This document shows, piece after piece, positions 32,693-55,320 of a DNA stretch of 64,000 bases. The position numbers were made by a program, and so were the translations under genes. Each line of letters opens with the position of its first letter. The first letter of the stretch is position 1. Where the stretch lies: NCBI RefSeq assembly GCF_053078305.1, contig NZ_CP166879.1; one strand, written 5' to 3'. The notes under the pieces are model-generated. The model saw only the letters and a program-made list of their open reading frames with translations, ran no database searches and was not told where the DNA came from.

Positions 32693-34783
32693 ATGCGAAT
32701 AACCACTCTGGCTTCCGTAGTCATTCCCTGTCTCGGATTTTCAGCCAGCAGCATAGCTGCTGCAGAGGATGTGATGATTGTCTCGGCATCCGGCTATGAG
32801 AAAAAGCTGACTAACGCAGCCGCCAGTGTTTCTGTGATTAGCCAGGAGGAATTGCAGTCCAGCCAGTACCACGATCTGGCGGAGGCTCTGAGATCAGTAG
32901 AGGGTGTGGATGTTGAAAGTGGTACGGGTAAAACCGGTGGGCTGGAAATCAGCATCCGAGGAATGCCAGCCAGTTACACGCTGATACTGATTGATGGTGT
33001 TCGTCAGGGCGGAAGCAGTGACGTGACTCCCAACGGTTTTTCTGCCATGAATACCGGGTTCATGCCCCCTCTGGCCGCCATTGAGCGTATTGAGGTTATC
33101 AGGGGGCCGATGTCCACACTGTATGGCTCTGATGCGATGGGCGGTGTGGTGAATATCATTACCAGAAAGAATGCAGACAAATGGCTCTCTTCCGTCAATG
33201 CAGGGCTGAATCTGCAGGAAAGCAACAAATGGGGTAACAGCAGCCAGTTTAATTTCTGGAGCAGTGGTCCCCTTGTGGATGATTCTGTCAGCCTGCAGGT
33301 ACGCGGTAGCACACAACAGCGTCAGGGCTCATCGGTCACATCACTGAGCGATACAGCAGCCACGCGTATTCCTTATCCCACGGAGTCACAGAATTATAAT
33401 CTTGGTGCACGTCTTGACTGGAAGGTGTCGGAGCAGGATGTGCTCTGGTTTGATATGGATACCACCCGGCAGCGTTATGATAACCGGGATGGGCAACTGG
33501 GGAGTCTGACGGGGGGATATGACCGGACCCTGCGCTATGAGCGAAACAAAATTTCAGCTGGCTATGATCATACTTTCACCTTCGGAACATGGAAATCGTA
33601 TCTGAACTGGAACGAGACAGAAAATAAAGGTCGTGAGCTCGTACGCAGTGTACTGAAGCGCGACAAATGGGGGCTTGCCGGTCAGCCGCGGGAGCTTAAG
33701 GAATCGAACCTTATCCTGAATTCATTACTGCTTACCCCTCTGGGAGAATCTCATCTGGTTACGGTGGGGGGCGAGTTTCAGAGCTCGTCCATGAAAGACG
33801 GAGTTGTCCTTGCCAGCACAGGTGAAACTTTCCGGCAGAAAAGCTGGTCGGTATTTGCTGAGGATGAGTGGCATCTCACGGATGCACTTGCGCTGACTGC
33901 GGGCAGCCGCTATGAACATCATGAGCAATTCGGGGGACACTTCAGTCCGCGTGCATATCTGGTCTGGGATGTGGCAGATGCCTGGACGCTGAAAGGCGGT
34001 GTGACCACGGGATATAAGGCACCCAGAATGGGGCAGCTACATAAAGGGATTAGTGGTGTGTCCGGGCAGGGAAAAACAAATCTACTTGGTAACCCCGACC
34101 TGAAGCCGGAAGAGAGCGTCAGTTATGAGGCTGGGGTGTATTACGATAACCCCGCCGGTCTGAATGCCAATGTCACAGGTTTTATGACTGACTTCTCCAA
34201 CAAGATTGTCTCTTATTCCATAAATGATAACACCAATAGCTATGTAAACAGCGGAAAGGCCCGGTTGCACGGTGTGGAATTTGCCGGCACATTGCCGCTG
34301 TGGTCAGAGGATGTCACGCTGTCACTGAATTACACCTGGACCCGAAGTGAACAACGTGATGGTGATAACAAAGGTGCGCCGCTGAGTTATACCCCTGAAC
34401 ACATGGTGAATGCGAAACTGAACTGGCAGATCACCGAAGAGGTGGCATCATGGCTGGGTGCCCGTTATCGCGGGAAAACACCACGTTTCACCCAGAATTA
34501 TTCGTCACTGAGCGCTGTACAGAAGAAAGTGTATGATGAGAAAGGAGAATACCTGAAAGCCTGGACGGTGGTGGATGCAGGTCTGTCGTGGAAGATGACG
34601 GATGCCCTGACGCTGAATGCTGCGGTGAATAACCTGCTCAACAAGGATTACAGTGACGTGAGCCTGTTCAGTGCCGGTAAGAGTACGCTGTATGCCGGTG
34701 ATTACTTCCAGACGGGATCATCAACAACGGGATATGTGATACCTGAGCGAAATTACTGGATGTCGCTGAACTATCAGTTCTGA
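32693..34783 (+). CDS. iha: TonB-dependent outer-membrane receptor, Iha-like (IrgA homologue adhesin / siderophore receptor)
   Basis: 696-aa ORF; signal peptide, TonB box (DVMIVSAS), plug domain and C-terminal aromatic beta-barrel terminus (NYQF); length and sequence recalled as Iha. Confidence 0.7.
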   Translation: MRITTLASVVIPCLGFSASSIAAAEDVMIVSASGYEKKLTNAAASVSVISQEELQSSQYHDLAEALRSVEGVDVESGTGKTGGLEISIRGMPASYTLILIDGVRQGGSSDVTPNGFSAMNTGFMPPLAAIERIEVIRGPMSTLYGSDAMGGVVNIITRKNADKWLSSVNAGLNLQESNKWGNSSQFNFWSSGPLVDDSVSLQVRGSTQQRQGSSVTSLSDTAATRIPYPTESQNYNLGARLDWKVSEQDVLWFDMDTTRQRYDNRDGQLGSLTGGYDRTLRYERNKISAGYDHTFTFGTWKSYLNWNETENKGRELVRSVLKRDKWGLAGQPRELKESNLILNSLLLTPLGESHLVTVGGEFQSSSMKDGVVLASTGETFRQKSWSVFAEDEWHLTDALALTAGSRYEHHEQFGGHFSPRAYLVWDVADAWTLKGGVTTGYKAPRMGQLHKGISGVSGQGKTNLLGNPDLKPEESVSYEAGVYYDNPAGLNANVTGFMTDFSNKIVSYSINDNTNSYVNSGKARLHGVEFAGTLPLWSEDVTLSLNYTWTRSEQRDGDNKGAPLSYTPEHMVNAKLNWQITEEVASWLGARYRGKTPRFTQNYSSLSAVQKKVYDEKGEYLKAWTVVDAGLSWKMTDALTLNAAVNNLLNKDYSDVSLFSAGKSTLYAGDYFQTGSSTTGYVIPERNYWMSLNYQF

Positions 34784-35429
34784 TAATAACAAAACGCTAT
34801 CACTGACGGTAGAATACGTTGCCACTGCAACTCCTGGCGGAACAGTGGCAACGTATTAGGTTAAGTGCATTTCCGATCCGCTAATGAGATTTCGTTACCA
34901 ACAACTAATATCGTCACAGGAAATGCACGGATTATTTTTAACTTATCATTTACATACTTGTCCAGAGTGTAAGCGCACCGTGAAGGACGAGGGGTAAAAA
35001 TTAGTTTACAGAGAGAGTGACGTTCCAGGGCAACAACTCTTTCATGCGGTTGGCAGGCCAGGTGTTGATTACACTGATCACGTGGCGTAGCCACGTTTCC
35101 GGCTCGATTCCGTTAAGTTTTGCAGCTACCGATCAGGCTGTACATCACTGCCGCACTATCGCTCGTCATCTCAAAGTCCGGTCTCGTCAGCAGGAAGGTA
35201 TCATTCTCTCCCGCCATTTTTCCGGAAGCCCGGTCAGATAAGTCCCTTTGTCTATCGCTGACTCCTGGCTCATAACCCGGTTAGCAGAATGCAGGGTCAC
35301 CACCTCGCCACGACCGAATCCGGATAAGTCAATTGCACCTTCTCAATCGCCATTTTGTCACAATTAAGTTTGATAAAGCAGGTCACTGAGGTGTACTGGC
35401 AATAGCGGACACTACCATTTGTTCTTTTT

Positions 35430-36248
35430 TTAAGCAGCCATCTGATGATATTTTTCCCTGAAGGCTGCCGGGGAGATATTCCCCAGACGAGAGTGACGAC
35501 GCTGACGATTGTAGAAAATCTCAATGTATTCCCGTATTACTGAGATGGCCTCATCCCGGCTCTTAAAACGATAGTGGCTCAGGCTCTCATTTTTCAGCGT
35601 TCCCCAGAAGCTTTCCATCGGAGCGTAGTCGTAACAGTTACCTTTACGCGACATTGATGTTTTCAGACCAAACTGCTCCTGTATGACCCGGTAATCGTAT
35701 GCGCAGTACTGTGAACCTCGATCGGAGTGGTGGATTAGCCCGGCAGGTGGGCGCTGGCTCCTGAGCGCCATAAACAGGGCTTTACCTGTCAGCTCTTTTG
35801 TCATGCGCTCTCCCATGGCGTAGCCGACAATTTCGCACGTATAAACATCTTTGATGCCAGCGAGGTACAACCATCCCTCCTGTGTGGCAACATACGTCAG
35901 GTCCGCCACCCAGACCTGATTTGGTGCTGTAGGAGCGAACGTCTGGTTCAGCAGATTTGGCGCAACTGGCAGATTGTGGTTCGAGTTCGTAGTCGCTCTG
36001 AACTTGCGTTTATGCTTACAGCGTAGCCTTAGCTCCTTACGAAGACGTGCCAGTCGGTCACGACCAACGATGATGCCATTCTCTGCCAGCTCCGTCTGGA
36101 GCCGCCGGGTTCCATATGTTTCGCGAGTGCGGATATGTGCCACCTTAATCTCCAGTTTTAGCCGCTCATCACTTTGTTTTCTGTCTGAGGGTTCATGCTG
36201 TACCCGGTTGTAATAACCGCTCCTGGATACACCAAATACCTGACACAT
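35430..36248 (-). CDS. IS600 OrfB (DDE integrase-core transposase; expressed as OrfAB by frameshift)
   Basis: 272-aa ORF with HSDRGSQY and SMSRKGNCYDYAPMESFWGTLKNE motifs. Confidence 0.88.
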   Translation of the reverse strand: MCQVFGVSRSGYYNRVQHEPSDRKQSDERLKLEIKVAHIRTRETYGTRRLQTELAENGIIVGRDRLARLRKELRLRCKHKRKFRATTNSNHNLPVAPNLLNQTFAPTAPNQVWVADLTYVATQEGWLYLAGIKDVYTCEIVGYAMGERMTKELTGKALFMALRSQRPPAGLIHHSDRGSQYCAYDYRVIQEQFGLKTSMSRKGNCYDYAPMESFWGTLKNESLSHYRFKSRDEAISVIREYIEIFYNRQRRHSRLGNISPAAFREKYHQMAA

Positions 36249-36283
36249 CGCTTCAATGGGAAATTGTTGTCGCCATTGTTCGA

Positions 36284-36586
36284 TTAACGCGTATTTTTCA
36301 GCGACTCCTGTGCAAAATACGCTGTTGCTTTTTTTAATATATCTCGCTCAAGGCGAGCTTCATTTAACGCCTTACGCAGTTGCAGAATTTCAGATTCCAG
36401 TTCAGCCACCGTGCGGGAACCAGGAGTACCGAGCCCTTTTCTGGCGGCGGTAACCCATTGTCCTAAAGTGCCTTCAGGAAGAGATAATCGGGAAGCGCCT
36501 TCACTGATCGAAAGTTGATTTTCAAGAACCGTTCTGACAGCTTCGGCTTTGAACTCTTTAGAGTAACGTTGGGTTTTTCTGCTCAT
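36284..36586 (-). CDS. IS600 OrfA (HTH transposase subunit)
   Basis: 100-aa ORF, HTH plus leucine-zipper-like region typical of IS3 OrfA. Confidence 0.85.
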   Translation of the reverse strand: MSRKTQRYSKEFKAEAVRTVLENQLSISEGASRLSLPEGTLGQWVTAARKGLGTPGSRTVAELESEILQLRKALNEARLERDILKKATAYFAQESLKNTR

Positions 36587-37071
36587 TATTAGCTCCTTCT
36601 GATGCCATTCTATTTCAGGAAGGAGTGTCCGTTAAACTCAGGCTACCTCACATCAGATGCCAACGCAACATTCCCTGCCATAAGCGCAGCCAGAACGCCT
36701 GTTACAACTAAACTATTCCTGGTGATATTGCTCATTCTCTTTCTCCATTTGTCGAGGATTTGGGCGTTGATTTTCGACGAGCTCCAGTTGCAACTCCAGT
36801 CTTAAGGTTATATCGGGATAGCACACAAGTGTTACACGCATAAACAAAAAATACCCAAAAAGTATTATTTCATAACATTTATTCATGGAAGATAACAATG
36901 AAACGATTCAGCTATATTTTTTAAACTAAAAAATACTTTATAAGAACATCCCAATTTTGGAGGCGATACTCATTCTCCCCCTGATAAATAAACACTCTCG
37001 TCCGACAGGGCGTGGAAACTATCAATAACCACAGTAATGATGCTGACTTTGTTTTCGTTTAAGGAAATGAC

Positions 37072-41618: not shown

Positions 41619-41648
41619 GCCTCCGCAGCAATTTGTGGAGGCTTTTTT
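41619..41648 (+). terminator. Rho-independent terminator after lutC
   Basis: GCCTCCGCA...TGTGGAGGC hairpin followed by TTTTTT. Confidence 0.7.
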
Positions 41649-41728
41649 GCTTACTCCAAACAGTTTGGCTTCTTGAAAAAGTCATATCCCAAACCTATTG
41701 ACGCTTATAAAAAAGTAAAGAATGGTGA

Positions 41729-41957
41729 GTAAGCGTAAACTGACCACCGTATGTAGCCATGATGCCAGTATTGGTAACGTAGGTGCACCCCTATCTATTT
41801 TTGTAGAACCGGAGGAAACAGACCAGATAGTTTAAATGAGCTGGTTATACGTAACATAATTGTAAGCGTAAACTGACCGCCGTATGTAGCCATCAGACGA
41901 AAATTGGTAACTTAGACGCCCATCTGATATAGACGGACATCTAAGTATGGAATTACA
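41729..41957. repeat. Two tandem solo copies of an IS66-family terminal inverted-repeat segment
   Basis: GTAAGCGTAAACTGACC(A/G)CCGTATGTAGCCAT at 41729 and 41863, near-identical to the end of the IS66 element at 53769-53798. Confidence 0.65.
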
Positions 41958-41985
41958 TGAACCGCCCCGGAAATCCTGGAGACAT

Positions 41986-42211
41986 CTGGCCACCCTGATT
42001 CCTTCCCGTAACAACTGACGCCAGACTTTACGCACATCGTATACGCACGGTATCTTTTTCTTCAGCCAGTCATCACGCTGCGCACGGGCATTGCGTTTAT
42101 CAGGATGATGTCGCTGTTGCTGACAGTGGTAATACGTTGACGGGGCAATATGCAGTTCACTGCATACCGGTCCGATCCCGTACTGCTCACGCGACTTATC
42201 CAGCAGTGGCA
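41986..42211 (-). pseudogene. IS629 OrfB, truncated after ~75 codons
   Basis: MPLLDK...HIAPSTYYHCQQQRHHPDKR matches IS629 OrfB N-terminus then runs into the terminal IR. Confidence 0.7.
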
Positions 42212-42538
42212 TTATTTTTTCCAGGGGCGGTCGAACTCCGCCTTCGCAAAATAAGTGGAAGCCTGGCGAAGGATATCGTTACTGCGGCTCAGTTCACGAT
42301 TTTCACGTTCCAGCTCTTTCAGACGCTGACGTTCAGTGGTGGTGAAACCACCATCACCGCCCCCAATATCCTGCTCATGCTGGAGTACCCAGACGTGCAG
42401 AGTCTCCGGTGTACAGCCAATCTTAGGGGCAATAGAACAAATTGCTGTCCATTGTGAGTCATATTCGCCCTGACTTTCCAGAACCATACGAACTGCCCGT
42501 TGACGGACTTCGGGGGAAAAACGTGTATTTTTAGTCAT
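42212..42538 (-). CDS. IS629 OrfA
   Basis: 108-aa ORF MTKNTRFSPEVRQRAVRMV... recognised as IS629/IS1203 OrfA. Confidence 0.85.
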   Translation of the reverse strand: MTKNTRFSPEVRQRAVRMVLESQGEYDSQWTAICSIAPKIGCTPETLHVWVLQHEQDIGGGDGGFTTTERQRLKELERENRELSRSNDILRQASTYFAKAEFDRPWKK

Positions 42539-42752
42539 CCTGTTTACCTCTTTCTCAGGGAGTTTAGTCTCCAGGATTTCCGGGGCGGTTTAACGTTTAT
42601 AACAACTCCGACCATTCAAAATGGCCGGCGGGGTATAAATCCCTATCAATTTAACATTATCTCATTTGACATGAATAACGCCGTTTATCTATTTGTTGCC
42701 CTTTAGCTAGTTCATAGCAACCTAGAAAAATTTATTCGTTGCAATATAAATG

Positions 42753-44300
42753 CTACTTGCGTAGCGATAAAATTGCCCGTGCGGTTTCAGCACGGTTATA
42801 GATCTGCATTTTTTTTATTGCAGCATCCACATCTTCACCGCTTTTCTTATTCAGTTTAATCAGAAACTCAACAGGTAATAGCGAAGCTAAATTTTCAAAT
42901 TTTGATTCAGACCAAGTAATGGTTGCAACAGCCCCTTCAGTTCTCTTAATCATTAGTTTTTTAAGTAATTCTAAACGCTCTGGCTCAACAGTTATATAAC
43001 CAATCGGCAGGGTTAATGCACTATCAGAATTAGGTTGACCGTGGTATTGCACCAAAGCAATCACATCAGGAATTAAGAGGATCTCCAAACGATCAAATTT
43101 AGCCTCTGAAGTAAGGCCAATACCGGTAGGAAAACGACCTAAGTGCCGCTTACGCTCTTGACGTTTTTCACCTTCATCTGCACTTGAGTGTAAAAGCGAA
43201 ATGCGAGCAATCTTATCATCGGCATAATTGCCAAGTATATCGCCTAGAGCGCGAGTAAAACGCGAAAGTTGACTACCATTAGCTCCCCACAGTGGTACTT
43301 TACTGCTATACCACAGCGCTTTTGGAGCTGTTTTACCTATATAATCACGTAATGCATTATGCAACATACTAATGAACAGCTTAGAATTGTGCGGCAAATA
43401 AACAGCCCCTAACATGCCGGTAGTCAATGAAGTACCGTAGCCAGTTTTACGTTGTTCACGAGCCTCTATCCAGCCGGAATAGTTGAACTTATAACCATTA
43501 GCAAATTGTAACAACACTTTATCATTTGCTAGTTTACAGAAATCTTCACAGTCGATACCGAATTCATCTAGTTTATGTTCTCCCAAAAAATCTGCGATAT
43601 GAGCTTCCAGCTCGTTTGAAAGCGGCAGCCGGGTGTTACCTAAATATTCATAGGAACGAGTAAATTTCTGCGGCTCAATGCTCCCAGCAGAAACACCGTA
43701 GCTAACCTCTATCTCTATTGGGAGCTGCACCATCTCATGCGAACTACAGCCCATTATCTTATATAATTTAGTCCGTTGACGCTCATACTCGCTGTTGCGG
43801 CTGAGCAAAAGATGGTGCCGAAACTGGGAACTAAAAGCCTCTGTTACCGCAGCAGCATCTCCCCCGATCTGATGCCGCGGCAATAGCTCTGGCAGTCCAG
43901 AAGTAAAACGACGATTTGGTTGCGGTTTACATATCGAAAGAGTTAGTAGATCGAATGCAACTTCCTCCGTACATTCTTGATATTTAACTAAACTTGGCTT
44001 CCCACCATTATTAGCTGCATGCTTACGTAGGAATGAGCTAGCCTCAATATGCCCATCAGGATTAATGTTGATCAGTCTGTTAGCCAGCAACCCATCAAGC
44101 AATACCTCTCGCTCACGATCAGTTAGACCAAAGTAATTCTGTAACTCGCTGGGATAGAGTTGATCAAAAATCAGCAGCAAGCGACATGCAAACTGTTCAA
44201 TTCCAGGCATCAGTTTTTCAGTGGTCAAAGCGCAGTTGATCTTGTAACTACGCGCAGGTAGTAAAACGGTAATCAGATTACCCAGACGTGGTTCTGACAT
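42753..44300 (-). CDS. Hypothetical 515-aa protein, translationally coupled partner of the NERD-kinase-helicase gene
   Basis: Long ORF with start ATG overlapping upstream TAA (TAATG); no recognisable motif by eye. Confidence 0.8.
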   Translation of the reverse strand: MSEPRLGNLITVLLPARSYKINCALTTEKLMPGIEQFACRLLLIFDQLYPSELQNYFGLTDREREVLLDGLLANRLININPDGHIEASSFLRKHAANNGGKPSLVKYQECTEEVAFDLLTLSICKPQPNRRFTSGLPELLPRHQIGGDAAAVTEAFSSQFRHHLLLSRNSEYERQRTKLYKIMGCSSHEMVQLPIEIEVSYGVSAGSIEPQKFTRSYEYLGNTRLPLSNELEAHIADFLGEHKLDEFGIDCEDFCKLANDKVLLQFANGYKFNYSGWIEAREQRKTGYGTSLTTGMLGAVYLPHNSKLFISMLHNALRDYIGKTAPKALWYSSKVPLWGANGSQLSRFTRALGDILGNYADDKIARISLLHSSADEGEKRQERKRHLGRFPTGIGLTSEAKFDRLEILLIPDVIALVQYHGQPNSDSALTLPIGYITVEPERLELLKKLMIKRTEGAVATITWSESKFENLASLLPVEFLIKLNKKSGEDVDAAIKKMQIYNRAETARAILSLRK

Positions 44301-47300
44301 TAGTTGTTATCTCCAAGCAGACTTTGACCACACAGGATTTGGTAGTTGGGTTCATCTACTGCAACCTGTTTACTAATAAATTCATGAACGTTTCCAAGTG
44401 CTGAATCATTATTGGTCTTTGACCACATACGCCTTGCTCCCAGAATCAATAACCTTTCTTGAGCTCGCGAAATAGCAACGTTTATTCGCGGCGCGTCGCG
44501 CAGGAAACCTTGTAGTTTGTTGGGATTATCGCGAACCAGACTGAGGATAATTATCTTGTTTTCCTGGCCCTGATATGAATCAACGGTATCGATCTTGATC
44601 AAACCACGTAACGATGCAGCCCATTCAGCCCGACTGATAGCATTGTCAATTTCCTCTTTTTGCTGACGATACATTGTGATTATACCAATAGGATATGGCT
44701 GTTCTGTGGTAATAGTTTGCTCAAGCTGTGCAATGCAGCCATCACTCGACAATGACTGCAAAGCCTCTAGCAGTAGCCGGACTTCTCGTTGATTATAGTA
44801 ACGACCATTACCCTTATGTTCTTCTGCACCTGCTTCATTAGGGCTCGAACTATCGATCCAAGTAACAGTTTTGTTCCAAGGGATTGGTAACTTGGAATAC
44901 CAATCTGGCGAGACTTTCCTCGATGAATGCAGTTTACCGATATCTTGAGCGTAAAAGCACTCCGATACTAACTCGCCAATTGGTTCTACCATTCGATATT
45001 GAGTATCGAGTGTTACGCCGCCTGTTGCTTTAAAAGCACGTTCAAAATCAGACTCATAAAAGATCCCTTTCCCGAGTTCTAATTTCTTAGAGGCTAACTT
45101 AAGATGCTGTTGATGATAGAATGGTGGCAATTGTTTATGATCCCCTACCAACAGCACCCGCTTGCCTGATTGCAGCGCTACCATCAATTCAGCAGCTTGT
45201 GCTCGGCCAGCCTCATCAACTATTACCCAATCAAAGCTGGACTCAGCTAGTTCTAGTCGACGATTCCCAACACCAACAAGAGTTCCACAAACCAATCGCT
45301 TACTTTTGAACATAAATCGATCAAATCCAGCCTCGCCGCCGCGTAATACATCCATCCACTCTTGGCTCATTTCCAATAGCTGCATAAAACGTTCAAGGTT
45401 CTCTGGATTGTTATAATTGTATTGTATGGCAACTTGCTCAGCCAACTGTCTTATCAAGGTTTCATCATAGACAAGAGTTTTCAGCAAGCTGTCATCGAAT
45501 ATTGAGTTAATAATTTCTTGTGTTCGCAGTTTAAGCTGATTGCTTTGTTCTAATAATTCAGCCAGTCGCTCTTGATGACTAATACTACTACTCTTTATTT
45601 GTTCTACTTTATCCAGCTCACGGCTATATTGGCCATATGTCACCATCAAGGGATTCAGCGTACGATGTAACTGACATAACTGTTGGACTAATAATGGGGC
45701 CATCCCTAGGCGCTTTCCTAGGGAGCTAACTCGCAGATCATATTCACGGTGAAATTTATGCTGAATCTGTCGCTGAAGAGCTTTAGTTGCAACACTTAGC
45801 ATACCCTCATCAATCATAAGTTCATTACCAATACGTACTGTATCCAGTTCCATTCCTTTCGTATGGCAGAGCTCTCGAGCCTTGATGGCTACATTATCAA
45901 CAGAGGCATGGGATTGCCCGACCAAAAGAATGTTATTCACACCGCAATGTTGATACAGATAGTGAATAAATTTTGAAATAAATGTTGTTTTACCTGTTCC
46001 AGGTGGTCCCTGCAGAACTCCAACTGGTCCAAACTCGACCAACTGTTGAAATGCCATTAGCTGCTGTTCATTAAAACGTTGTCCAGGCTGATCATAAAGT
46101 GCGCGTAATGTCTCCGCGGATGGCCGCGGTTGCATTTGCTGCATGCAGGGTTTCTGGTGGTAATCAAAATACTGTGGCAGATGCTGGATCTCTGCTTTGT
46201 TTTCAATTACCCGTTGAAGGGCTCTTTGACGCAACTCTCTTGATGATTTGTCACGGATCGATTCCAATTGTAGCTGGCTGCCGCTACTAATTCGCTTACG
46301 AGCAGCATCAAAATCAAAGCGAATAGCCAATAGACTCGGCGTAGTCTCACTTAGCTGCAATTCCCCTAATTGCACTGATTCACGCTTATCTTTAATATAA
46401 ACAATGATCTTATCATCAAGTTCAAAGCTGAGGTCAGCACCGGATTCCGTAGTATATGGGTAGAGTAAGCAACCACTCGGTGATTCCTGAAAGTCAGTAG
46501 AGTCGATGTTGACTATATCTCGTAGGTCTACTTCTGTATCAGATAATGCCTGCCATAACTCAATTGGGCTTGACTCACTACTATCGAAGTCATCTTCATC
46601 CATCTCTTGATTAGGATTAGCTCGCTCAATGATGGCATCAATTACTGGCTCGAGGTTAAACAGTAGTTCAATAAAAGTATTACGCTGATTAAGTGAGCCA
46701 CGTTGTAATGAAAGTTGAGTATTAATTTTAGCCTGGGAATATTTACCAGCCTTTATACTTTCTTCGATCGATAATCCTTTTTCATACACTATTCTATTAA
46801 TAGTGCGATTATCAGGATCTAAGTCTATCAATAGCCGCTCTCCTAGGCCAGTGATGTAACAACGCAATTCATGCGCAAAGCGTGGGTTAGATGACCAGTT
46901 ACATTGAAAATAATAGATCCCATCATTTTGTTCTAGAAGCTTCACTTCTTGCGGCCAATCATCTGTGCCCCAGCAAACAGGAATTACCTTATCCTGTGAC
47001 TCAGACGCCACAACTTGATTAATCTCAGCTTGTTCCGGTGCTCGAATTGACTGCAGCAAAGGATCGAGCGCGATAGGTATACCGTCAACGGTTTGTTTTG
47101 CGCGTTCTAGCTCAGCCTGCACCAGTACTGGCATATCTTCACTAAATAGCTCCTCCACCATACGATATACTGCAAAGCAATCTCGCCCAAAAGCATCAGT
47201 ACTTTCGGGATTCTCTGGCTGGTAGCGATTATCTGCAGTTAATTCATCACTGAATTCAAGCAATCCAATCAGAGTAATTACTGTCTGCTCCCCGACTTGT

Positions 47301-49258
47301 ACCAGCAGTTTCTCTGGGCAAAGATCTCCATGAGGTAACTGCTTTTCATGAAAAGCATGAATGGTGTTGATCAACTTTTCCGCAATTGTAAAACGTTGGG
47401 ATTGTACTAACACGTTCTCAGCAATAAACTGTGACCACGGTAGGCCATCCACATACTCGCTCACTACATACAAGCCGCCTTGTCCTAATAGTCCATAGGA
47501 CTGCACCTTAGGAGTTGGCAGATTTATATGCGTAAGCTTATCGATCCGTTGCTTAAAAGCGTGGATACGGCGGTTAACACCAGGTTGTTGAGGGGTCAAA
47601 ATAACACCATCCCACAATTTTACCTGCAGAGCTTTCCCACCTTGTTCACAGTGATAACTGATGCTGCCAGTCGTAGCAATAGCAGCAAGAGCAGAGTAAA
47701 CCATAGACAACTGTTCAGGAAGTGGAGGAAACTCAATTAACACACCAACGCTGTTCATCCCTTCGCGAAAGAATTTGTTTTGCTTTAATTCTTGATAAAT
47801 CTGGTTAGCTTCATCAAATTCTTGGCTATGTTCCTTAGTAGCTGCATTAAACTCATTGAGCATTATGTCCGCACGTGGAAAGCGTTTACTTGGCTCAAGG
47901 TTAAGAGCTTGCTCAAACCAGCTATTTAGAATACCGCTAAAAGGATCAGTTAATGGAGCTCTCCATTCAGGCATCTGTCCAGGAGTCAGTAATGATTCAC
48001 CTGCAAAACAAATACGATAAGCAATTACAGCCAACATGAATACATCTAGGCGATAGGGCTCAACTGCTTCTTCAAAAGCATCTTCGGGCAAAATATATGG
48101 AGCACTTTGCAATGTCGGACGCAATGACTCTAGGCTATTATGTCCCTCCAGTGAGGCTGCGCCAAAGCCAGTAACGACAATGCTCTTCTGATCCCCTGCG
48201 TACCATAGATTGTGCGGGTCAATATCACAATGACTGATACCCAAGCTATGTAATTCCGAGAATGGAGCTAATAATGCACGAACGCGATCAATACGCTCAG
48301 ATTTACTCCATCCGTCAGCTTCGCTATCTAGAATCTCATCTAATCGGCTAAAACTACGGCGTAACTCATACAGCTCACGGGCATCATCAGTTATATCCTC
48401 CTCGGATAGTTCCCTTACAGCACGCAACATATAATCCTGCATAGTTGCGCTGCCATGACGAACTAGGCGACCGACTCGAGTCTCACGCAGAGCTATCTCA
48501 GCCCACAATGTTTGCATTGCGTTTGCTACACCCAAGGCATCAAAGTTCCACTGCCGTAGCAGACCTCTGTGTTGACTATTGTCTTTGTGGGTAGCCCTGA
48601 ATTCGTTGTAGACCATGTGAGGGTGACTAAAGAATGGCTTATCGTTCGCAAGATAACCGCTTTCTTTTAGTGGCAAAGGCCTGACTTTTGGTCCTTCAAA
48701 GAAGGACTTAATTATAGGTAATGCCTCATCAGAATTTGGTCGAGGCTTTCCCCCTTCAAAAAGATGAAAAAAGTTAGTGTGTTGCACCAGCTTTTCGTAA
48801 TTTTTTGGGTTACCTATAGTCAAGAATTCATCACGGGTATGAACATAGCGCCTCTCACTTAATGGCAAGTTTTCAGGACCAGCTGTGCCACACAGCACTA
48901 CATGAGCCTCAACATGCAAAAAGTAACCCAGCTTACGAGATAACTCTTCCTGCAACAAATCTTTTAGTCGCAGTGCATGCTCACGCTTGATCTGATAGGG
49001 ACTTTTGCCTCGTGACTTACCATTTTGCAGCCACTTCCCCCCTTCAAATGTGATGTTACCATTCCACTCTTTAAGCTCGACTAATAGCAGACGGTCAGCA
49101 GTAATAATTAGCATATCGATTTCCATCGACCCTTGGCTATCAGTAACAACTAAGCCAGCATAGCCAAACCAACTATCTGGTAACTGCTTAACCATCATAT
49201 CAACTGTTTTGGTTTCGCTGCGGTGCAGGCCAGCACCACCTACTATCTGATACTTCAC
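44300..49258 (-). CDS. 1652-aa multidomain protein: N-terminal NERD-like nuclease domain, two protein-kinase-like domains, C-terminal SF1 (Upf1/DNA2-like) helicase
   Basis: NERD-like D...ELK region (aa ~45-65); kinase catalytic-loop-like HCDIDPHN (aa 343-350) and HGDLCPEK (aa 643-650); Walker A GPPGTGKTT (aa ~1084), Walker B VIVDEAG, SF1 motif TVDSYQGQE. Confidence 0.85.
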   Translation of the reverse strand: MKYQIVGGAGLHRSETKTVDMMVKQLPDSWFGYAGLVVTDSQGSMEIDMLIITADRLLLVELKEWNGNITFEGGKWLQNGKSRGKSPYQIKREHALRLKDLLQEELSRKLGYFLHVEAHVVLCGTAGPENLPLSERRYVHTRDEFLTIGNPKNYEKLVQHTNFFHLFEGGKPRPNSDEALPIIKSFFEGPKVRPLPLKESGYLANDKPFFSHPHMVYNEFRATHKDNSQHRGLLRQWNFDALGVANAMQTLWAEIALRETRVGRLVRHGSATMQDYMLRAVRELSEEDITDDARELYELRRSFSRLDEILDSEADGWSKSERIDRVRALLAPFSELHSLGISHCDIDPHNLWYAGDQKSIVVTGFGAASLEGHNSLESLRPTLQSAPYILPEDAFEEAVEPYRLDVFMLAVIAYRICFAGESLLTPGQMPEWRAPLTDPFSGILNSWFEQALNLEPSKRFPRADIMLNEFNAATKEHSQEFDEANQIYQELKQNKFFREGMNSVGVLIEFPPLPEQLSMVYSALAAIATTGSISYHCEQGGKALQVKLWDGVILTPQQPGVNRRIHAFKQRIDKLTHINLPTPKVQSYGLLGQGGLYVVSEYVDGLPWSQFIAENVLVQSQRFTIAEKLINTIHAFHEKQLPHGDLCPEKLLVQVGEQTVITLIGLLEFSDELTADNRYQPENPESTDAFGRDCFAVYRMVEELFSEDMPVLVQAELERAKQTVDGIPIALDPLLQSIRAPEQAEINQVVASESQDKVIPVCWGTDDWPQEVKLLEQNDGIYYFQCNWSSNPRFAHELRCYITGLGERLLIDLDPDNRTINRIVYEKGLSIEESIKAGKYSQAKINTQLSLQRGSLNQRNTFIELLFNLEPVIDAIIERANPNQEMDEDDFDSSESSPIELWQALSDTEVDLRDIVNIDSTDFQESPSGCLLYPYTTESGADLSFELDDKIIVYIKDKRESVQLGELQLSETTPSLLAIRFDFDAARKRISSGSQLQLESIRDKSSRELRQRALQRVIENKAEIQHLPQYFDYHQKPCMQQMQPRPSAETLRALYDQPGQRFNEQQLMAFQQLVEFGPVGVLQGPPGTGKTTFISKFIHYLYQHCGVNNILLVGQSHASVDNVAIKARELCHTKGMELDTVRIGNELMIDEGMLSVATKALQRQIQHKFHREYDLRVSSLGKRLGMAPLLVQQLCQLHRTLNPLMVTYGQYSRELDKVEQIKSSSISHQERLAELLEQSNQLKLRTQEIINSIFDDSLLKTLVYDETLIRQLAEQVAIQYNYNNPENLERFMQLLEMSQEWMDVLRGGEAGFDRFMFKSKRLVCGTLVGVGNRRLELAESSFDWVIVDEAGRAQAAELMVALQSGKRVLLVGDHKQLPPFYHQQHLKLASKKLELGKGIFYESDFERAFKATGGVTLDTQYRMVEPIGELVSECFYAQDIGKLHSSRKVSPDWYSKLPIPWNKTVTWIDSSSPNEAGAEEHKGNGRYYNQREVRLLLEALQSLSSDGCIAQLEQTITTEQPYPIGIITMYRQQKEEIDNAISRAEWAASLRGLIKIDTVDSYQGQENKIIILSLVRDNPNKLQGFLRDAPRINVAISRAQERLLILGARRMWSKTNNDSALGNVHEFISKQVAVDEPNYQILCGQSLLGDNN

Positions 49259-49468
49259 GTTTTCTCCTGCACCACTAAATTTTTGTTGGTGGTAGTCCAG
49301 TAAAAATGGATGTAGTTATCTAAGACAGCGCATAGATTGTGCCTGCCTAACCCTAAAAAGTGTAATTATGAAAAGTAACGCTAGAAATTCTATACCGTTC
49401 GCAAAGAGAACACTTTTCAAAGATATATCATCATCTTGAACATGTCACTATAATGGTGAATCCATAAG

Positions 49469-49630
49469 ATGCGAACACCACATCTTGTGCCACTCAGCAA
49501 ACAGGCTGTAGCCATACTGATAAAACTTCAGACATGGGCAGTTGAAAATGGTCTGGTCTTTACGGGAGCACATGACCCGCGTAAACCAATCAGCGAAAAC
49601 ACCGTAAATAAGGCCCTTAGGTGCCCTTGA
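49469..49630 (+). pseudogene. Phage-type integrase fragment (internal ~53 codons only)
   Basis: MRTPHLVPLSKQAVAILIKLQ...GLVFTGAHDPRKPISENTVNKALR resembles the central region of P4-type integrases (compare intact int at 18437). Confidence 0.5.
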
Positions 49631-49725
49631 ACCACTATATCCAGACAGCCGTTGAGCTTAAGTTAACGTTACCGAGTGACGTTGATATTCCCTCGGTGAG
49701 AGATAACCAAGGCACCATGAGGATG

Positions 49726-50353
49726 CTATTCGTTATAGTGTTCGAACGCCTCCGCAAGGTTTTTTACTGCCGTTAACACGTCCGGTTTAGGTATGATACT
49801 GATGTAATCGCTCTTCATCGTTTTCACGAACCGTTCTCTCATTCCATTACTCTGAGGGCTACTGACTGCCGTCGTGCAGAGCTCCAGATTCAACTCTCTG
49901 GCGAACTGCCGTGTTTCATGAGTTGTATAAGCCGAACCGTTATCGGTCAGCCACTGGATGGGCCATCCCGGTCTATCGCCAAAGCGTTTTTCTATCGCTC
50001 CTGACATGACATCCTGCACCGTTGCTTTGCCATAACCTCCCGTGCTTGCGGCCCAGTCTATGGATTCAAGATCGCAACAGTCCAGTGCGAACGTGACACG
50101 CAGTTTTTCGTCATCATCACAACCGAACTCAAAGCCATCGGCACACCAGCGCGGGTCGCTTTCCTTCACCGATATTCGGGCCTTTATGTTCCCTCTGCGG
50201 TCGTGAAGGTTTGTCATGTAATAACAACAGGTTATTCTCGCTCATTATTCGATAAACGCGATTTGCATTCACGAACTGCAGTCCTTCGTTAAGACTGCCG
50301 TCTGAGAATAGCCCAGACACGACGATAGCCATCGAATCGCTGAACAGCGTCAT
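49726..50353 (-). pseudogene. IS2-like (IS3 family) transposase OrfB remnant, frameshifted
   Basis: ORFs 49726-50217 and 50129-50353 together resemble IS2 InsD (NANRVYRIM..., [34 protein letters not shown]) in two frames. Confidence 0.6.
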
Positions 50354-50459
50354 TCGGCAGGCGATAAAGAAGGTGTCGTTACGGGGAAGTCATCTTCACA
50401 GAGATTTTCAGTCAGTTAGCATTACCGACATTCATTCACCAACTTACCGGAGATAATCA

Positions 50460-50789
50460 ATGTCAAAACCCCGATGGACCATTGAACAGAAAAGGCAGCA
50501 CGTTGCTGCCTGGCGCGCCAGTGGTCTTACACGTCAGCAATACTGTGAACTCAACGATATTCCCTTCACATCACTTCGCGAATGGCCGCAGGATGTCGCA
50601 AAAGCTGAACGCCGGGCAAATGAACCGACCGTTCTTCCCGTTCATATTGCGCCACCACTGCATGCTGATGTACCACAGCCCGTCACGAATGAGCCAGTCA
50701 CGCTCTTCCTTCCCGGCGGAGTACGGATGTGCTGTCAGCCGTCACAACTTACCGATGTCTTCAGGGCGCTCAAATATGCTCAGTCCTGA
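50460..50789 (+). CDS. IS66-family TnpA (orf1) of outer element
   Basis: 109-aa ORF followed by overlapping tnpB and tnpC in the canonical IS66 order. Confidence 0.7.
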   Translation: MSKPRWTIEQKRQHVAAWRASGLTRQQYCELNDIPFTSLREWPQDVAKAERRANEPTVLPVHIAPPLHADVPQPVTNEPVTLFLPGGVRMCCQPSQLTDVFRALKYAQS

Positions 50790-51168
50790 TAATGTCTTCA
50801 TCGCGATTAAACCTGTTGACATGCGCCGGGGCATCGACACACTGACGCAGTATATACAGGATGAACTCCGGTCGACATGGCATGAGGGAGCCGCCTTCGT
50901 CTTTGTTAACAAAGTCCGTTCGCGTATCAAAGTTCTCCGGTGGGATAAACACGGGGTGTGGTTGTGTACCCGCCGTCTGCACAAAGGCAGCTTCCGCTGG
51001 CCACGTGCAAATGATGCTGCCTGGCACCTCACTCCCGACGAGTTTAACTGGCTGATTGCCGGTGTTGACTGGCAGCAGGTTAAGGGACATGACCTGACGA
51101 AATGGGGCTGGCAGAATGAACCTGAACTGCGCCCTGAAAACACGCAAAATACACTGCTAACTCAGTGA
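50776..51168 (+). CDS. IS66-family TnpB (orf2) of outer element
   Basis: ORF 50482-51168; start set at MLSPDNVFIAIKPVDMRRG, paralogous to the TnpB at 52940-53290. Confidence 0.7.
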   Translation: MLSPDNVFIAIKPVDMRRGIDTLTQYIQDELRSTWHEGAAFVFVNKVRSRIKVLRWDKHGVWLCTRRLHKGSFRWPRANDAAWHLTPDEFNWLIAGVDWQQVKGHDLTKWGWQNEPELRPENTQNTLLTQ

Positions 51169-51174
51169 AAAATA

Positions 51175-51265
51175 ATGAATATCCGTATCCGGAGTGGTAT
51201 ACTCCCCTGTATGGATATCTCCGCTCTCAACACCACGAATGACATCGAAAAACTGCGTGCTATGG
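51175..51265 (+). pseudogene. IS66-family tnpC of outer element, 5' part (interrupted by nested IS66 insertion)
   Basis: ATG at 51175; reading frame continues exactly across the insertion into 53807-55320 when one copy of the 8-bp duplication is removed. Confidence 0.7.
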
Positions 51266-51295
51266 GTAAGCGTCAACGGAGCACCGTATTGACGC

Positions 51296-52909
51296 TTATT
51301 TATTGGTGAGTACTACGTTCCATGGCAGGAGTTCATCAACTCGGTTGGAAGGCCATTCTGGCAGTACGCTCAGGATATGGCGCAGATACGCTTCCGGATC
51401 GATACCGTTCAGACGGCAGGTGCCGATCAGCCCGTACAACAGTGCTCCACGCTCGCCGCCGTGATCGCTGCCAAAGAACATAAAGTTTTTCTTTCCGAGA
51501 CAGACTGCACGAAGCGCTCTTTCCGCAGCATTATTATCCGCCTCCGCCAGACCGTCATCACTGTAATAACAGAGGGCATCCCACTGATTCAGTACATAGC
51601 TGAACGCTTCGCCCAGTCTGGATTTTTTCGACAGCGTACCATTCTTCTCCACCATCCATTCATGCAGTGACGTCAGTAACACTTTGCTTCGCTGCTGCCT
51701 GACGGCAAGACGCTCTGACTCCGGTAATCCCCGTATTTCATCCTCGATGGCGTACAGTTCACTGATTCGCTTCAGGGCTTCTTCTGCCGTCGCACTTTTG
51801 CTGCTGATGTATACATCGTGGATTTTTCGCCGGGCATGGGCCCAGCACGCAACTTCTGTCAGTGCACCACCTTCACGTTCTGCACTGAACAGCCGATCGT
51901 AACCGCTGAACGCATCCGCCTGCAGGATACCCCGGAAGGGACGAAGGTGTTGTACCGGATGTTTTCCCTGCCTGTCTGGTGAGTAGGCGAACCAGACCGC
52001 CGGTGGCTCTGATGAGCCCGCATTCCGGTCATCCCGGACATACGTCCAGATGCGTCCTGTTTTTGCCTTTTTTCTGCCCGCTGCCAGCACTTTTACTGGT
52101 GTGTCGTCAGTGTGAACCTTGCGGGTGTTCATCACGTAACGGTACAGGGTATCATTCAGCAGAGTCATTAACTGACAACATGCGTCAACCCAGTTGGAGA
52201 GTAATGCCCGGCTCAGTTCGATGCCCTGGCGGGCAAAGATTTCACTCTGACGATACAGTGGCAGGTGTTCGCAGTATTTTCCCGTTAACACGCGGGCAAG
52301 TAATCCGGAGCCCGCGATGCCGCGCTCTATCGGGCGGGACGGCGCTGGCGCTTCAACTATACAGTCACATTTTGTACAGGCTTTTTTTACCCGAACAGTG
52401 CGGATCACTTTCAGGGCGCTACTCACCAGTTCCAGCTGCTCAGCACTGACTTCCCCCAGATAATCCAGCTCACTGCCACACTCCGGGCAACAACTTTCTT
52501 CAGGCTCCAGACGGTGTATTTCACGGGGAAGATGTGCCGGTAACGGACGACGATGACGTGACTGTCGCAACTGGCGGGGAACCTGCGGGTCATCCTCACG
52601 CCCACTGTAACGATCGCTTTCCTGTTCGCGTTGTTTCAGTTGGGCCTCAGCCTGTTCAACCTCACGCTGCAGTTTTTCAGAACGGGTACCGAACAACATC
52701 CGGCGCAGTTTTTCTATCTGGGCCCTCAGATGTTCTATTTCCCGCTCCTCCTCTTCGATCTTTTCCTCGGCACGTGCCAGTGCAGAGCGCAGGAAGGCCT
52801 CCGTCTCTTCAACCAGACTCAGTTGCTGATCTTTCTGACGGAGGGCTTCAGCCTGCTCAGAGAGCAGCCTTTCCAGCTCAGTGATACGAATGAGGTATTT
52901 CCGACTCAT
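51296..52909 (-). CDS. IS66-family transposase TnpC
   Basis: 537-aa ORF with N-terminal coiled-coil, CPECG zinc-finger-like motif and DDE region. Confidence 0.9.
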   Translation of the reverse strand: MSRKYLIRITELERLLSEQAEALRQKDQQLSLVEETEAFLRSALARAEEKIEEEEREIEHLRAQIEKLRRMLFGTRSEKLQREVEQAEAQLKQREQESDRYSGREDDPQVPRQLRQSRHRRPLPAHLPREIHRLEPEESCCPECGSELDYLGEVSAEQLELVSSALKVIRTVRVKKACTKCDCIVEAPAPSRPIERGIAGSGLLARVLTGKYCEHLPLYRQSEIFARQGIELSRALLSNWVDACCQLMTLLNDTLYRYVMNTRKVHTDDTPVKVLAAGRKKAKTGRIWTYVRDDRNAGSSEPPAVWFAYSPDRQGKHPVQHLRPFRGILQADAFSGYDRLFSAEREGGALTEVACWAHARRKIHDVYISSKSATAEEALKRISELYAIEDEIRGLPESERLAVRQQRSKVLLTSLHEWMVEKNGTLSKKSRLGEAFSYVLNQWDALCYYSDDGLAEADNNAAERALRAVCLGKKNFMFFGSDHGGERGALLYGLIGTCRLNGIDPEAYLRHILSVLPEWPSNRVDELLPWNVVLTNK

Positions 52910-52939
52910 GACCGTTTTTATAATCCGGCCATGACATTT

Positions 52940-53290
52940 TTACAACATTGTCAGTGCATTAAGGCGGGATGTTTTGGGCTGACGCCAGTCCAGTTTATCG
53001 AGGAGCATTGCCAGCTGCGAGCGGGTAATGGATACCTTACCGTCACGCACCGCAGGCCAGATAAACTGGCCTTCCTCCAGACGTTTGGTGAACAGGCACA
53101 GACCATCAGCATCAGCCCACAGAATTTTAATCGTGTCACCCCGTCGGCCGCGAAAGATAAACAGGTGACCGGAGAAGGGGTTCTCATCCAGCACATGTTG
53201 TACCTGTTCTCCCAGACCGTTGAAGGATTTACGCATATCAGTAACGCCGGCAACCAGCCAGATTCGAGTGCCTGATGGGAGCGAGATCAT
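52940..53290 (-). CDS. IS66-family TnpB (orf2)
   Basis: 116-aa ORF MISLPSGTRIWLVAGVTDMRKSFNGL..., typical IS66 orf2. Confidence 0.88.
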   Translation of the reverse strand: MISLPSGTRIWLVAGVTDMRKSFNGLGEQVQHVLDENPFSGHLFIFRGRRGDTIKILWADADGLCLFTKRLEEGQFIWPAVRDGKVSITRSQLAMLLDKLDWRQPKTSRLNALTML

Positions 53291-53712
53291 CGTCCCCTCC
53301 CGGTCAGTTCACGGATCAACACCGTGAGCAGCTCTGGTGAAGGATTTTCCAGCGTCATGTTACCGTGGCGGAACTCAACTTTACAGGAACTGGCACTGAC
53401 TGTGCTTTGTGAAGGAGTGGATAAAAGCGGAGTAAGAGCCGCCACAGGCTCTTTCTGCTCATCAGGCGTTATCTCAACAGGTAATAATTCAACGCCAGCG
53501 CCAGAAGAGGTTGTTACCGGAAGACGCCGCGATATACGCCCTTCGTTCTGCCAGAGCCTGAGCCATTTGAACAGGAGGTTATCATTGATATCGTGTTCCC
53601 GGGCAATACGGGCAACAGAGGCTCCTGGTTGTGAAGCCAGTTTAACCATTTGAAGTTTAAACTCATTTGAAAATGATCTGCGGGGTTCTGAGGATAATAT
53701 TTTCTGTTCCAT
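53287..53712 (-). CDS. IS66-family TnpA (orf1)
   Basis: 141-aa ORF overlapping tnpB start by 4 nt. Confidence 0.85.
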   Translation of the reverse strand: MEQKILSSEPRRSFSNEFKLQMVKLASQPGASVARIAREHDINDNLLFKWLRLWQNEGRISRRLPVTTSSGAGVELLPVEITPDEQKEPVAALTPLLSTPSQSTVSASSCKVEFRHGNMTLENPSPELLTVLIRELTGRGR

Positions 53713-53798
53713 AACAGGTGTCCACTAGTTGAAAAGGTGGGCACCTACGTTACCAATACTGGCTTAATGGCTACATACGGCGGTCAGTTTACGCTTAC

Positions 53799-55320
53799 TG
53801 CTATGGCACTTACCATGGTACAAAAAGTCATGTCGGAGAATGCCGAAAAAGAGCGGGAATTACTGGAGAAAAGCCGGCGCATCCAGCTTCTGGAAGAAAT
53901 GCTGAAACTGGTTCGTCAACAGCGCTTCGGTAAAAAATGTGAAACGCTGGCTGGTATGCAACGCTCCCTGTTCGAAGAGGATGTTGATGTCGATATCGCC
54001 GCGCTTACCGCACATCTGGATAAACTGCTCCCGCAATCCCCTGAAGAAGACGAAAAAGCGTCCCGTTCACGCCCGATACGCAAACCCTTACCGGCTCATC
54101 TTCCACGGGTGGAAAAAATTATCCAGCCGGACACTGACCATTGCCCTGAATGTGACGAGCCGCTGCACTATATCCGTGATGCGGTGAGTGAAAAGCTGGA
54201 GTATATTCCCGTTCACTTCGTGGTGAACCGTTATGTCCGTCCGCAATACAGTTGTCCCTGTTGCCAGAAGGTGTTCAGCGGTGAAATGCCGGCACATATC
54301 CTCCCGAAAAGTGCCGTTGAGCCATCAGTCATCGCACAGGTGATCATCAATAAATACGGTGACCACCTGCCTCTGTATCGCCAGCAGCACATTTTCTCCC
54401 GAATGGGGGTGGAGCTCCCCGTCAGTACAATGGCGGATAGGGTCGGTGTTGCTGGCGCTGCACTGGCCCCGCTGGCAAAATTGTTACGCCACGAGCTTCT
54501 GACACGGGATGTTATTCATGCCGATGAAACGTCCCTGAGGCTCCCTGATACCCGGAAAGGCGGTAAATCCTGCTCCGGCTGGCTGTGGGCTTACGTCAGC
54601 GGAGAAAGAAGCAGTCCGCCGGTCGTCTGTTTTGACTCGCAGACCGGACGGGCCCTCAGATATCCTGAGGCCTGGCTGCAGGGCTGGTGTGGCGGTACGC
54701 TGGTGAGTGACGGATACAGCGTGTACAAATCTCTGGCGGATAATGACCCCGGTATTACATCTGCCTGTTGCTGGAGCCACGCAAGGCGCGGTTTCGCAAA
54801 TCTGTATAAGGCCAGCAGGGAGCCCCGTGCAGCCATGGCGCTGAGAAAAATCGCGGGTCTTTATCGCATTGAGAAGTTCATCCGTGAACGTCCTGTGGAA
54901 AAAATACGGCAATGGCGACAACGGTATTCCCGGCCGATAGTGAATGACCTGTTTGCCTGGCCTGAAGAGCAGGAGCCGTGCTGTCCGCCCGACGGACCAC
55001 TAAACAAAGCGATTAATTATATCCTGAACCGGCGCGATGAACTGAGCTGCTTCCTGAGTGACGGAGCCGTGCCCCTGGACAACAATATCTGCGAGCGTGC
55101 TATCCGCCCGGTCGTTATGGGACGAAAGGCCTGGTTGTTCGCCGGTTCACTGATGGCCGGAAACCGCGCGGCACAGATAATGAGCCTTCTGGAAACGGCA
55201 AAACGTAATGGTCTGGAGCCACATGCCTGGCTGACAGACGTCCTGGCGCGTCTGCCGGAATGGCCAGAGGAGCGACTGGCAGAGTTGCTGCCTCTTGAGG
55301 GATTTACCTTCTCCGGGTGA
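53799..55320 (+). pseudogene. IS66-family tnpC of outer element, 3' part
   Basis: ORF 53737-55320 in frame with 51175-51265 across the nested insertion; CPECDEP zinc-finger-like motif and DDE region. Confidence 0.75.

Follow-up and report, generated by a model that had tools for sequence, protein, structure and literature searches.

We analysed a window of 64,000 nucleotides (contig NZ_CP166879.1, RefSeq assembly GCF_053078305.1) in which the lactate-permease/lutABC genes are followed by a stack of insertion sequence (IS) remnants and then by the two genes of a defence module. The lut operon closes with a hairpin whose sequence is identical across all lut-island genomes aligned; the IS debris begins just behind it. 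The features are:

41619-41651 (+): terminator-like hairpin with T-run, 3' of lutC, end of the lut operon
41729-41792 (+): solo left end of an IS682-like IS66-family element (IRL and subterminal sequence), 64 bp, ending before tnpA
41796-41850 (-): ISCro1-like IRL and 5' leader, about 55 bp, cut approximately at the tnpA start codon
41851-41861 (no strand): spacer GTAACATAATT, 11 bp
41862-41957 (+): ISEc23-like IRL, leader and first 11 nt of tnpA (ATGGAATTACA), 96 bp
41958-42592 (orfA on the - strand): probable hybrid deletion derivative of the IS629/IS1203 group (IS3 family), 635 bp
42608-42628 (-): terminator-like hairpin, 3' of mkoB
42753-44300 (-): mkoB, 515 aa, PADLOC MkoB model PDLC03923, E 1e-61
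44300-49258 (-): mkoA, 1652 aa, PADLOC MkoA model PDLC03921, 1305 bits over residues 2-1642
51267-53798 (-): intact IS682-like IS66-family element, 2532 bp, with tnpA, tnpB, tnpC and GTAAGCG... ends

What had been listed as a candidate defence module is, judged from its gene content, a Mokosh type I system, i.e., one of a known kind. The gene for MkoA, a large helicase protein with the Pfam domains NERD, Pkinase, AAA_11 and AAA_12 (SF1 helicase), lies side by side with that for MkoB. mkoA is a single intact open reading frame in the window and is annotated as two CDSs in strain 2013C-3181. The hairpin at 42608-42628 is located in a 160-bp flank which always travels with the tip of the neighbouring IS.

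Strain 2013C-3181 (locus L001) matches the window up to 50166 only and then carries an ISCro1 insertion (target-site duplication, TSD, CTTTCCTT), in place of which the window has other IS66-family sequence; the window thus derives from a sibling of that strain. A second IS66-family element, with tnpA and tnpB starting at 50460, has its transposase gene interrupted by the intact IS682-like element (within 50460-55320), and strain SC516 has this target uninterrupted. The inserted element has the inverted repeat (IR) GTAAGCGTAAACTGACC... and an 8-bp TSD, CCATAGCA; the same element type is named IS682 by PGAP in strain CE0007a.

IS66-family ends beside lutC

According to the original prediction, two tandem solo IS66 ends of about 65 bp each lie 134 bp apart. 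Two direct copies do exist (41729-41782 and 41862-41915, 85% alike across 54 nt), and the first fragment measures 64 bp. The second, however, extends to 96 bp, the start-to-start spacing is 133 bp, and the fragments are three in number and come from three different elements. The ISCro1-like fragment, inverted between the other two, had been overlooked.

The IS682-like fragment is 92% identical over 65 nt to the IRL of the intact element in the window (53798-53735; E 2e-21). The ISCro1-like fragment shares 48 of 52 positions with the left end of ISCro1 (L001 23114-23167; L004 4001-4053). The ISEc23-like fragment, which is cut by the left IR of the 635-bp element, matches L012, with a transposase annotated as ISEc23 family, and L005 4918-5013 at 95 of 96 positions. 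IS682, ISCro1 and ISEc23 are used here as PGAP gives these names. The features of IS66 ends were taken from intact copies in the window and in fetched loci; a literature search on IS66 terminal features gave nothing useful. The fragments start with the GTAAGCG/GTAAC terminal repeat and are homologous to the tnpA-proximal ends of intact copies bounded by 8-bp duplications, such as the ISCro1 of 2013C-3181 mentioned above. Unlike these intact copies, just 55-96 bp of each element are left (64, 55 and 96 bp, respectively), and the solo ends were found to have no tnpA, tnpB or tnpC, no second end and no duplication. Each of three different IS66-family members has thus left behind one tnpA-proximal end. 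We considered whether 41729-41850 is a 122-bp IS66-derived miniature inverted-repeat element (MITE). This was rejected: its ends belong to different IS66 members, an 8-bp duplication is missing (AATGGTGA vs. GTAACATA), and genomes carry a median of one copy.

Anatomy of the 635-bp element

RefSeq annotates this element as 'transposase; frameshifted; incomplete' together with an ALIL pseudoknot, between lutC and a hypothetical protein which adjoins a large AAA-domain protein. Its parts are:

41958-41982 (+): left terminal IR, 25 bp, canonical TG tip (the equivalent of CA)
41983-42222, approximately (-): orfB remnant, about 77-80 codons, the frame running out through the left IR
42010-42034 (no strand): proposed crossover interval; to its left the type of strains CE0007a/CE0026a, to its right the type of strain SC516
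42141-42257 (-): ALIL frameshift-stimulating pseudoknot RF01497 (Rfam), intact, full model covered
42212-42538 (-): orfA, 108 aa, reading frame intact, HTH_Tnp_1 E 1e-9 (Pfam)
42567-42592 (-): IRL (orfA-side IR), outer tip ...GGTTTA

The IR arms at 41960-41983 and 42567-42590 are complementary at all of their 24 nt (100%). The left IR abuts the interior of orfB at 41982/41983, with no intervening bases, and its 25 bp together with the C at 41983 make up 26 nt identical to the IRL of IS1203 copies. The right tip, on the module side, is TA; the tip of the IS3 family is CA. TA is common to every Mokosh-flanking copy examined, i.e., those of SC516, strain 222, strain 165 and JNEC-KY172.

The coding part follows the layout of the IS3 family, orfA leading into a signal for -1 frameshifting which consists of an A6 slippery run (about 42215-42222) and, beside it, the ALIL pseudoknot (107 bits at a gathering score of 50). 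PGAP marks the same pseudoknot in genomes identical to the window. OrfA is identical to the OrfA of IS1203 at 97 of 108 residues. Codon differences between the two comprise 11 nonsynonymous and 9 synonymous ones, a ratio which suggests relaxed constraint; in this comparison no sign of constraint on orfA was seen. A complete IS of this group has about 1310 bp and an orfB with a DDE domain. Here, about 77 orfB codons remain, and a Pfam search of the remnant returned no rve/DDE catalytic domain and a weak HTH_21 match only. Because of its length of 635 bp and the missing catalytic domain the element is a derivative and not a complete member of IS629/IS1203.

The extent of the loss was determined by alignment with a pair of IS1203-type copies of 1310 bp and with the pO157 Sakai copy (AB011549.2), which its depositors named IS629. 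Retained are IS coordinates 1-631 on the IRL side and 1286-1310, the 25-bp IR; missing are positions of about 632-1285 (about 654 bp of orfB) and an extra 21 bp at 559-579. These coordinates are from a five-sequence alignment, since a three-sequence MAFFT alignment with the pO157 IS629 misplaced the 25-bp IR. With its 1310-bp relatives the element shares the 25-bp IR core (TGAACCGCCCCGG...CCTGGAGA), orfA with HTH_Tnp_1, the A6 run with ALIL, the gene order and, over the parts retained, about 90-93% nucleotide identity. It differs from them in its length, in the loss of orfB (DDE) and of the 21 bp, in one TA tip, in the missing target duplication and in being a mosaic of two sub-lineages. Identity is about 90% to the pO157 Sakai IS629 and about 93% to the IS1203-type copies, excluding the 21-bp indel (569/611 positions). 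By ISfinder convention isoforms share about 95% nucleotide identity or more. Judged from these values, the element belongs to the IS629 group but is too diverged to be classed as an IS629 isoform.

The original prediction of an IS629-like deletion derivative of about 635 bp with both IRs is thus borne out by the alignments and domain searches. The element does not correspond to a known full-length IS, and it derives by deletion from a 1310-bp element of the IS629/IS1203 type. The predicted intact orfA and approximately 75 codons of orfB agree well with the 108 aa and about 77 codons found. Comparison with full-length IS629, which had been proposed as a check, did define the deletion (about 632-1285 plus 559-579); the element is probably not one deleted copy but a recombinant of two IS lineages. 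We also inspected the deletion junction for microhomology. This was unconvincing: GTG stands beside both parental breakpoints and is missing from the product.

Relatives of the two arms

To trace the element we used a 116-bp query across the IR|orfB junction (IR|ATCTGGCC), counting as a match one place that covers at least 80% of the query. The junction is present in nine of 5,426 complete E. coli genomes, one copy each and always at the lutC locus, and in none of 72,556 plasmids. The original prediction had advised a search for identical miniature copies elsewhere in the genome; nothing beyond these nine lutC-locus copies emerged from the same genomes and plasmids. Six of the nine contain the whole region 41700-42650 (951 bp), at 100% identity in the chromosomes of 2013C-3181, STEC17-190, SCU-106, N51 and GPEC1176 and at 99.9% in RM10410. 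The others are JNEC-KY172, CE0007a and CE0026a. JNEC-KY172 has a window-type element whose A6 slippery site (window 42215-42222) is the exact target of an inserted ISEc23-like element (L011 9299-11830; TSD TTTTTTCC). In CE0007a the element is split by IS682 (TSD GCAATATG); this IS682 is 99.2% identical to the intact IS682-like element of the window. IS66-family elements have hit the 635-bp target twice, independently, and the element behaves as a passive target for such insertions.

The left arm, i.e., the lut island and its boundary, is shared widely. The junction of the IS682-like with the ISCro1-like fragment occurs in 210 genomes (median of one copy each), and 41729-41861 is common to about 210 genomes, many with other cargo downstream. 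It follows that this stretch is not specific to the module and has long been fixed as the edge of the lut island. Strain 13E0767 is identical to the window from lutC to 41861; identity ends exactly where the ISEc23 IR begins, and past 41861/41862 the strain carries a type I restriction-modification (R-M) system. Among the genomes with this junction it is the one that was aligned; about 100 more gave the same kind of match, and the spacer 41851-41861 is the last sequence that they and the window have in common, with the breakpoint at 41861/41862. The site just 3' of lutC behaves like a variable defence locus which holds Mokosh in the window and type I R-M in 13E0767 and apparently in about 100 others. 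The cargo of CE0007a at this site comprises a wzzB fragment, a DEAD/DEAH helicase, a methyltransferase and an S8 peptidase.

Between 33783 and about 42036, CE0007a matches the window at 99.5-99.8% identity; beyond this it has different cargo. CE0007a and CE0026a share with the window the left flank, the ISEc23 fragment and the IR|ATCTGGCC junction, and are identical to it over 41958-42034 and in the DNA to the left. To the right of this the elements differ: CE0007a and CE0026a have an IS1203-type right part with 41 SNPs, no 21-bp deletion and a CA tip, a split by IS682, and other cargo thereafter.

The right arm leads to SC516. This strain is 99.9% identical to the window over 41983-51265 and 53799-54386, and its left neighbourhood is unrelated to that of the window. 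Its Mokosh segment is flanked by a degenerate 1287-bp IS copy of the IS629 group, which is also found in 1223, Ecol_517 and others; the configuration with both flanks occurs in at least 33 genomes. The copy is 100% identical to window 42035-42592 and to the flank and module beyond, and has the same 21-bp deletion and TA tip. Unlike the window's element it has kept the whole orfB region, frameshifted by two extra 1-bp deletions, has its own IRR and another left neighbourhood, and differs at 41994, 42000 and 42009.

Further Mokosh-flanking copies show other fates. That of strain 222 (L002 3054-6610) has a group II intron with an ltrA reverse transcriptase/maturase in the orfB region. In strain 165 (L010 1499-2784) the IS body is reversed relative to the Mokosh flank, at which the 25-bp IR with the TA tip still stands. 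The TA tip of strain 165 is accordingly next to the orfB side, that of the window and of SC516 next to the orfA side, and the IS interior may have been inverted between its identical IRs.

Type VI secretion genes or fragments of them are present on both arms. In the window, at 34552-36587 to the left of lactate-permease/lutABC, a complete IS600 (35430-36586) cuts short a type VI secretion sheath gene, tssB being intact and tssC truncated. In SC516, fragments of tssG and tssF lie on the far side of the Mokosh segment. This hints at a derivation of both arms from one broken-up type VI secretion island.

Origin and mobility

When the three kinds of element are aligned, the window changes allegiance once. 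At the informative sites 41982, 41994, 42000 and 42009 it follows CE0007a. From there on it sides with SC516, and nowhere with CE0007a: this holds for the 21-bp indel that follows 42034, for every one of the 41 SNPs (42047-42591) and for the TA tip. Three SNPs relative to the SC516-type copy, 41994, 42000 and 42009, are common to the window, CE0007a and CE0026a; the left-hand lineage is recognized by these three and by the common junction only. Against SC516 the window has three mismatches in the first 27 bp and none in the next 580 bp. By our own arithmetic, the chance that three differences all fall into the first 27 of 610 bp is about 1e-4, and that of zero differences from CE0007a in a stretch of 52 bp, given 7% divergence, about 0.02. 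Three configurations, a single switch point and a single-copy distribution at a single locus are the plain observations.

We interpret the region as an inert stack of IS remnants in which the 635-bp element is the joint of a homologous recombination between two relics of the IS629/IS1203 group, and give this reading a probability of roughly 75%. Recombination between two relics would account both for the absence of a TSD and for the clustering of the SC516 mismatches in the first 27 bp. If the two ends stem from different insertions, flanks of ACA and ACG without duplication are what one would expect.

From the comparisons we infer the following order of events, and a RecA mechanism for the last of them. 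Insertions and deletions of IS66-family elements 3' of lutC would have produced the IS682-like and the inverted ISCro1-like ends (41729-41850) and thereby the fixed boundary of the lut island. An ISEc23-like element would then have entered at 41861/41862, and an IS1203-type copy would have ended up in codon 4 of its tnpA and would have lost about 654 bp of orfB, giving the miniature IS. This state, with a canonical CA tip and other cargo to the right, would be the one kept in CE0007a and CE0026a. Finally, RecA-type recombination in 42010-42034 between the miniature IS and the degenerate, Mokosh-flanking 1287-bp relative would have set Mokosh and everything rightward of it beside lutC. On grounds of parsimony, and since the SC516 type is found far more widely, the window type would be the derived state; in principle, CE0007a might instead represent the recombinant. 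No genome with both presumed parents came to light. The original prediction of a scar of successive insertion and deletion events at the edge of the defence module holds in its multi-event character. Its oldest part, 41729-41861, however, is not specific to the module (about 210 genomes), and the element itself appears to be a recombinant of two lineages.

The origin of the left IR is ambiguous: its 26 nt equal the IRL of IS1203 exactly, and the step in which one copy suffers an internal deletion may therefore really have been a deletion between two copies. One may ask whether the left repeat of 25-26 nt is the solo IRL of a second IS1203 copy, in opposite orientation in the ISEc23 tnpA, with the miniature element made by a deletion that started just within this IRL and reached the orfB of an adjacent copy. 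The 26 nt TGAACCGCCCCGGAAATCCTGGAGAC are indeed those of the IRLs in L002, L004 and L010, and the IRRs of IS629/IS1203 read GGGTTTCC or GGTTTTCC...GAGAG, with 3-4 mismatches. Yet the Mokosh-flanking copies of SC516 and of strains 222 and 165 have an IRR of the same 25 nt, the C at position 26 is equally derivable from the orfB side of the junction, and a two-copy intermediate was not found. We regard this origin of the left end as possible but doubtful. It bears on the formation of the miniature IS alone and does not conflict with the subsequent recombination.

The original prediction went further in assuming that an element with both ends could still be mobilized in trans, which amounts to one IS629 copy with its own ends, shortened by a single internal deletion and, MITE-like, open to a resident IS629 transposase. 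Its two fully complementary IRs, the intact orfA and frameshift pseudoknot, and the presence in the host genomes of other IS629/IS1203-like matches (2-12 places per record, 90-95% identity) are in line with this. Self-movement is another matter: the element encodes OrfA and a truncated OrfAB which lacks the catalytic domain, and consequently it is unable to move on its own. Nor does anything indicate movement by another copy. The lineage switch at 42010-42034 calls for two parents, the left IR may be an IRL, and no target duplication of 3-4 bp was detected at the element ends (...TTACA| on the left, |ACGTT... on the right). Only nine of 5,426 genomes carry the junction, each as a single copy and at this one locus, and no plasmid among 72,556 does, where a MITE would be expected in multiple dispersed copies. 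IS3-family transposases, as studied in IS911, act preferentially in cis, which also counts against mobilization. As the left 26 nt equal IS1203 IRLs and the IRRs differ from these at 3-4 positions, the element may even carry two left-type ends. The TA tip does not fit the consensus of the family, and we had considered it as proof of immobility. This was abandoned in view of IS2, whose natural IRL has a TA-3' terminus and still serves as a recipient end (PMC3299598), an example which speaks for mobilization; the tip is retained solely as a deviation from consensus. With MITEs and experimentally built mini-transposons of the IS3 family the element shares that it is short, bounded by (transposase-binding) IRs and devoid of a working transposase. 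MITEs, however, are by definition numerous and scattered, each copy flanked by a target duplication, whereas this element is single-copy, has no such duplication, and has ends of different histories. Taken together, we consider a mobilizable one-copy derivative improbable; retention of both ends must not be equated with mobility.

One could also imagine that orfA was kept because OrfA is of use, for instance in repressing IS629-type transposition in trans or in regulating the adjacent Mokosh operon. Its frame, the IRL upstream of it and the frameshift signal are all intact, in contrast to the destroyed orfB, and Mokosh lies on the same strand and is read in the direction of the element. But a terminator-like hairpin stands between mkoB and the element, the IS body of strain 165 is reversed relative to Mokosh, the slippery site of JNEC-KY172 holds an IS66-family element and the locus persists, and the codon differences from the OrfA of IS1203 (11 nonsynonymous, 9 synonymous) suggest relaxed constraint. 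We give this idea hardly any credence.

Three cargos are encountered at the hot spot 3' of lutC: Mokosh type I, type I R-M and the helicase/methyltransferase system. This raises the speculation that the IS629-group relic acts as a portable 'adaptor' of homology by which defence cassettes are swapped into this site, a generalization we think rather unlikely. That the element of the window is a crossover joint is likely; that such recombination is a recurrent, general route at the hot spot is weakly suggested. If the adaptor idea were true, the window would show a single swap of this kind, its crossover located to within 25 bp.

The stretch is ordinary, dead IS debris of known families in an E. 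coli chromosome and not novel in kind, and the current understanding of IS3 and IS66 biology is unchanged. Annotation gains three IS66-family solo ends, not two, and the assignment of the adjoining module to Mokosh type I. The probable hybrid element marks the join of the Mokosh type I segment to the lactate-utilization island. It would be a worked example of how a defence system changes its chromosomal neighbourhood by recombination between dead IS copies, a route which is neither transposition nor the work of a site-specific integrase.
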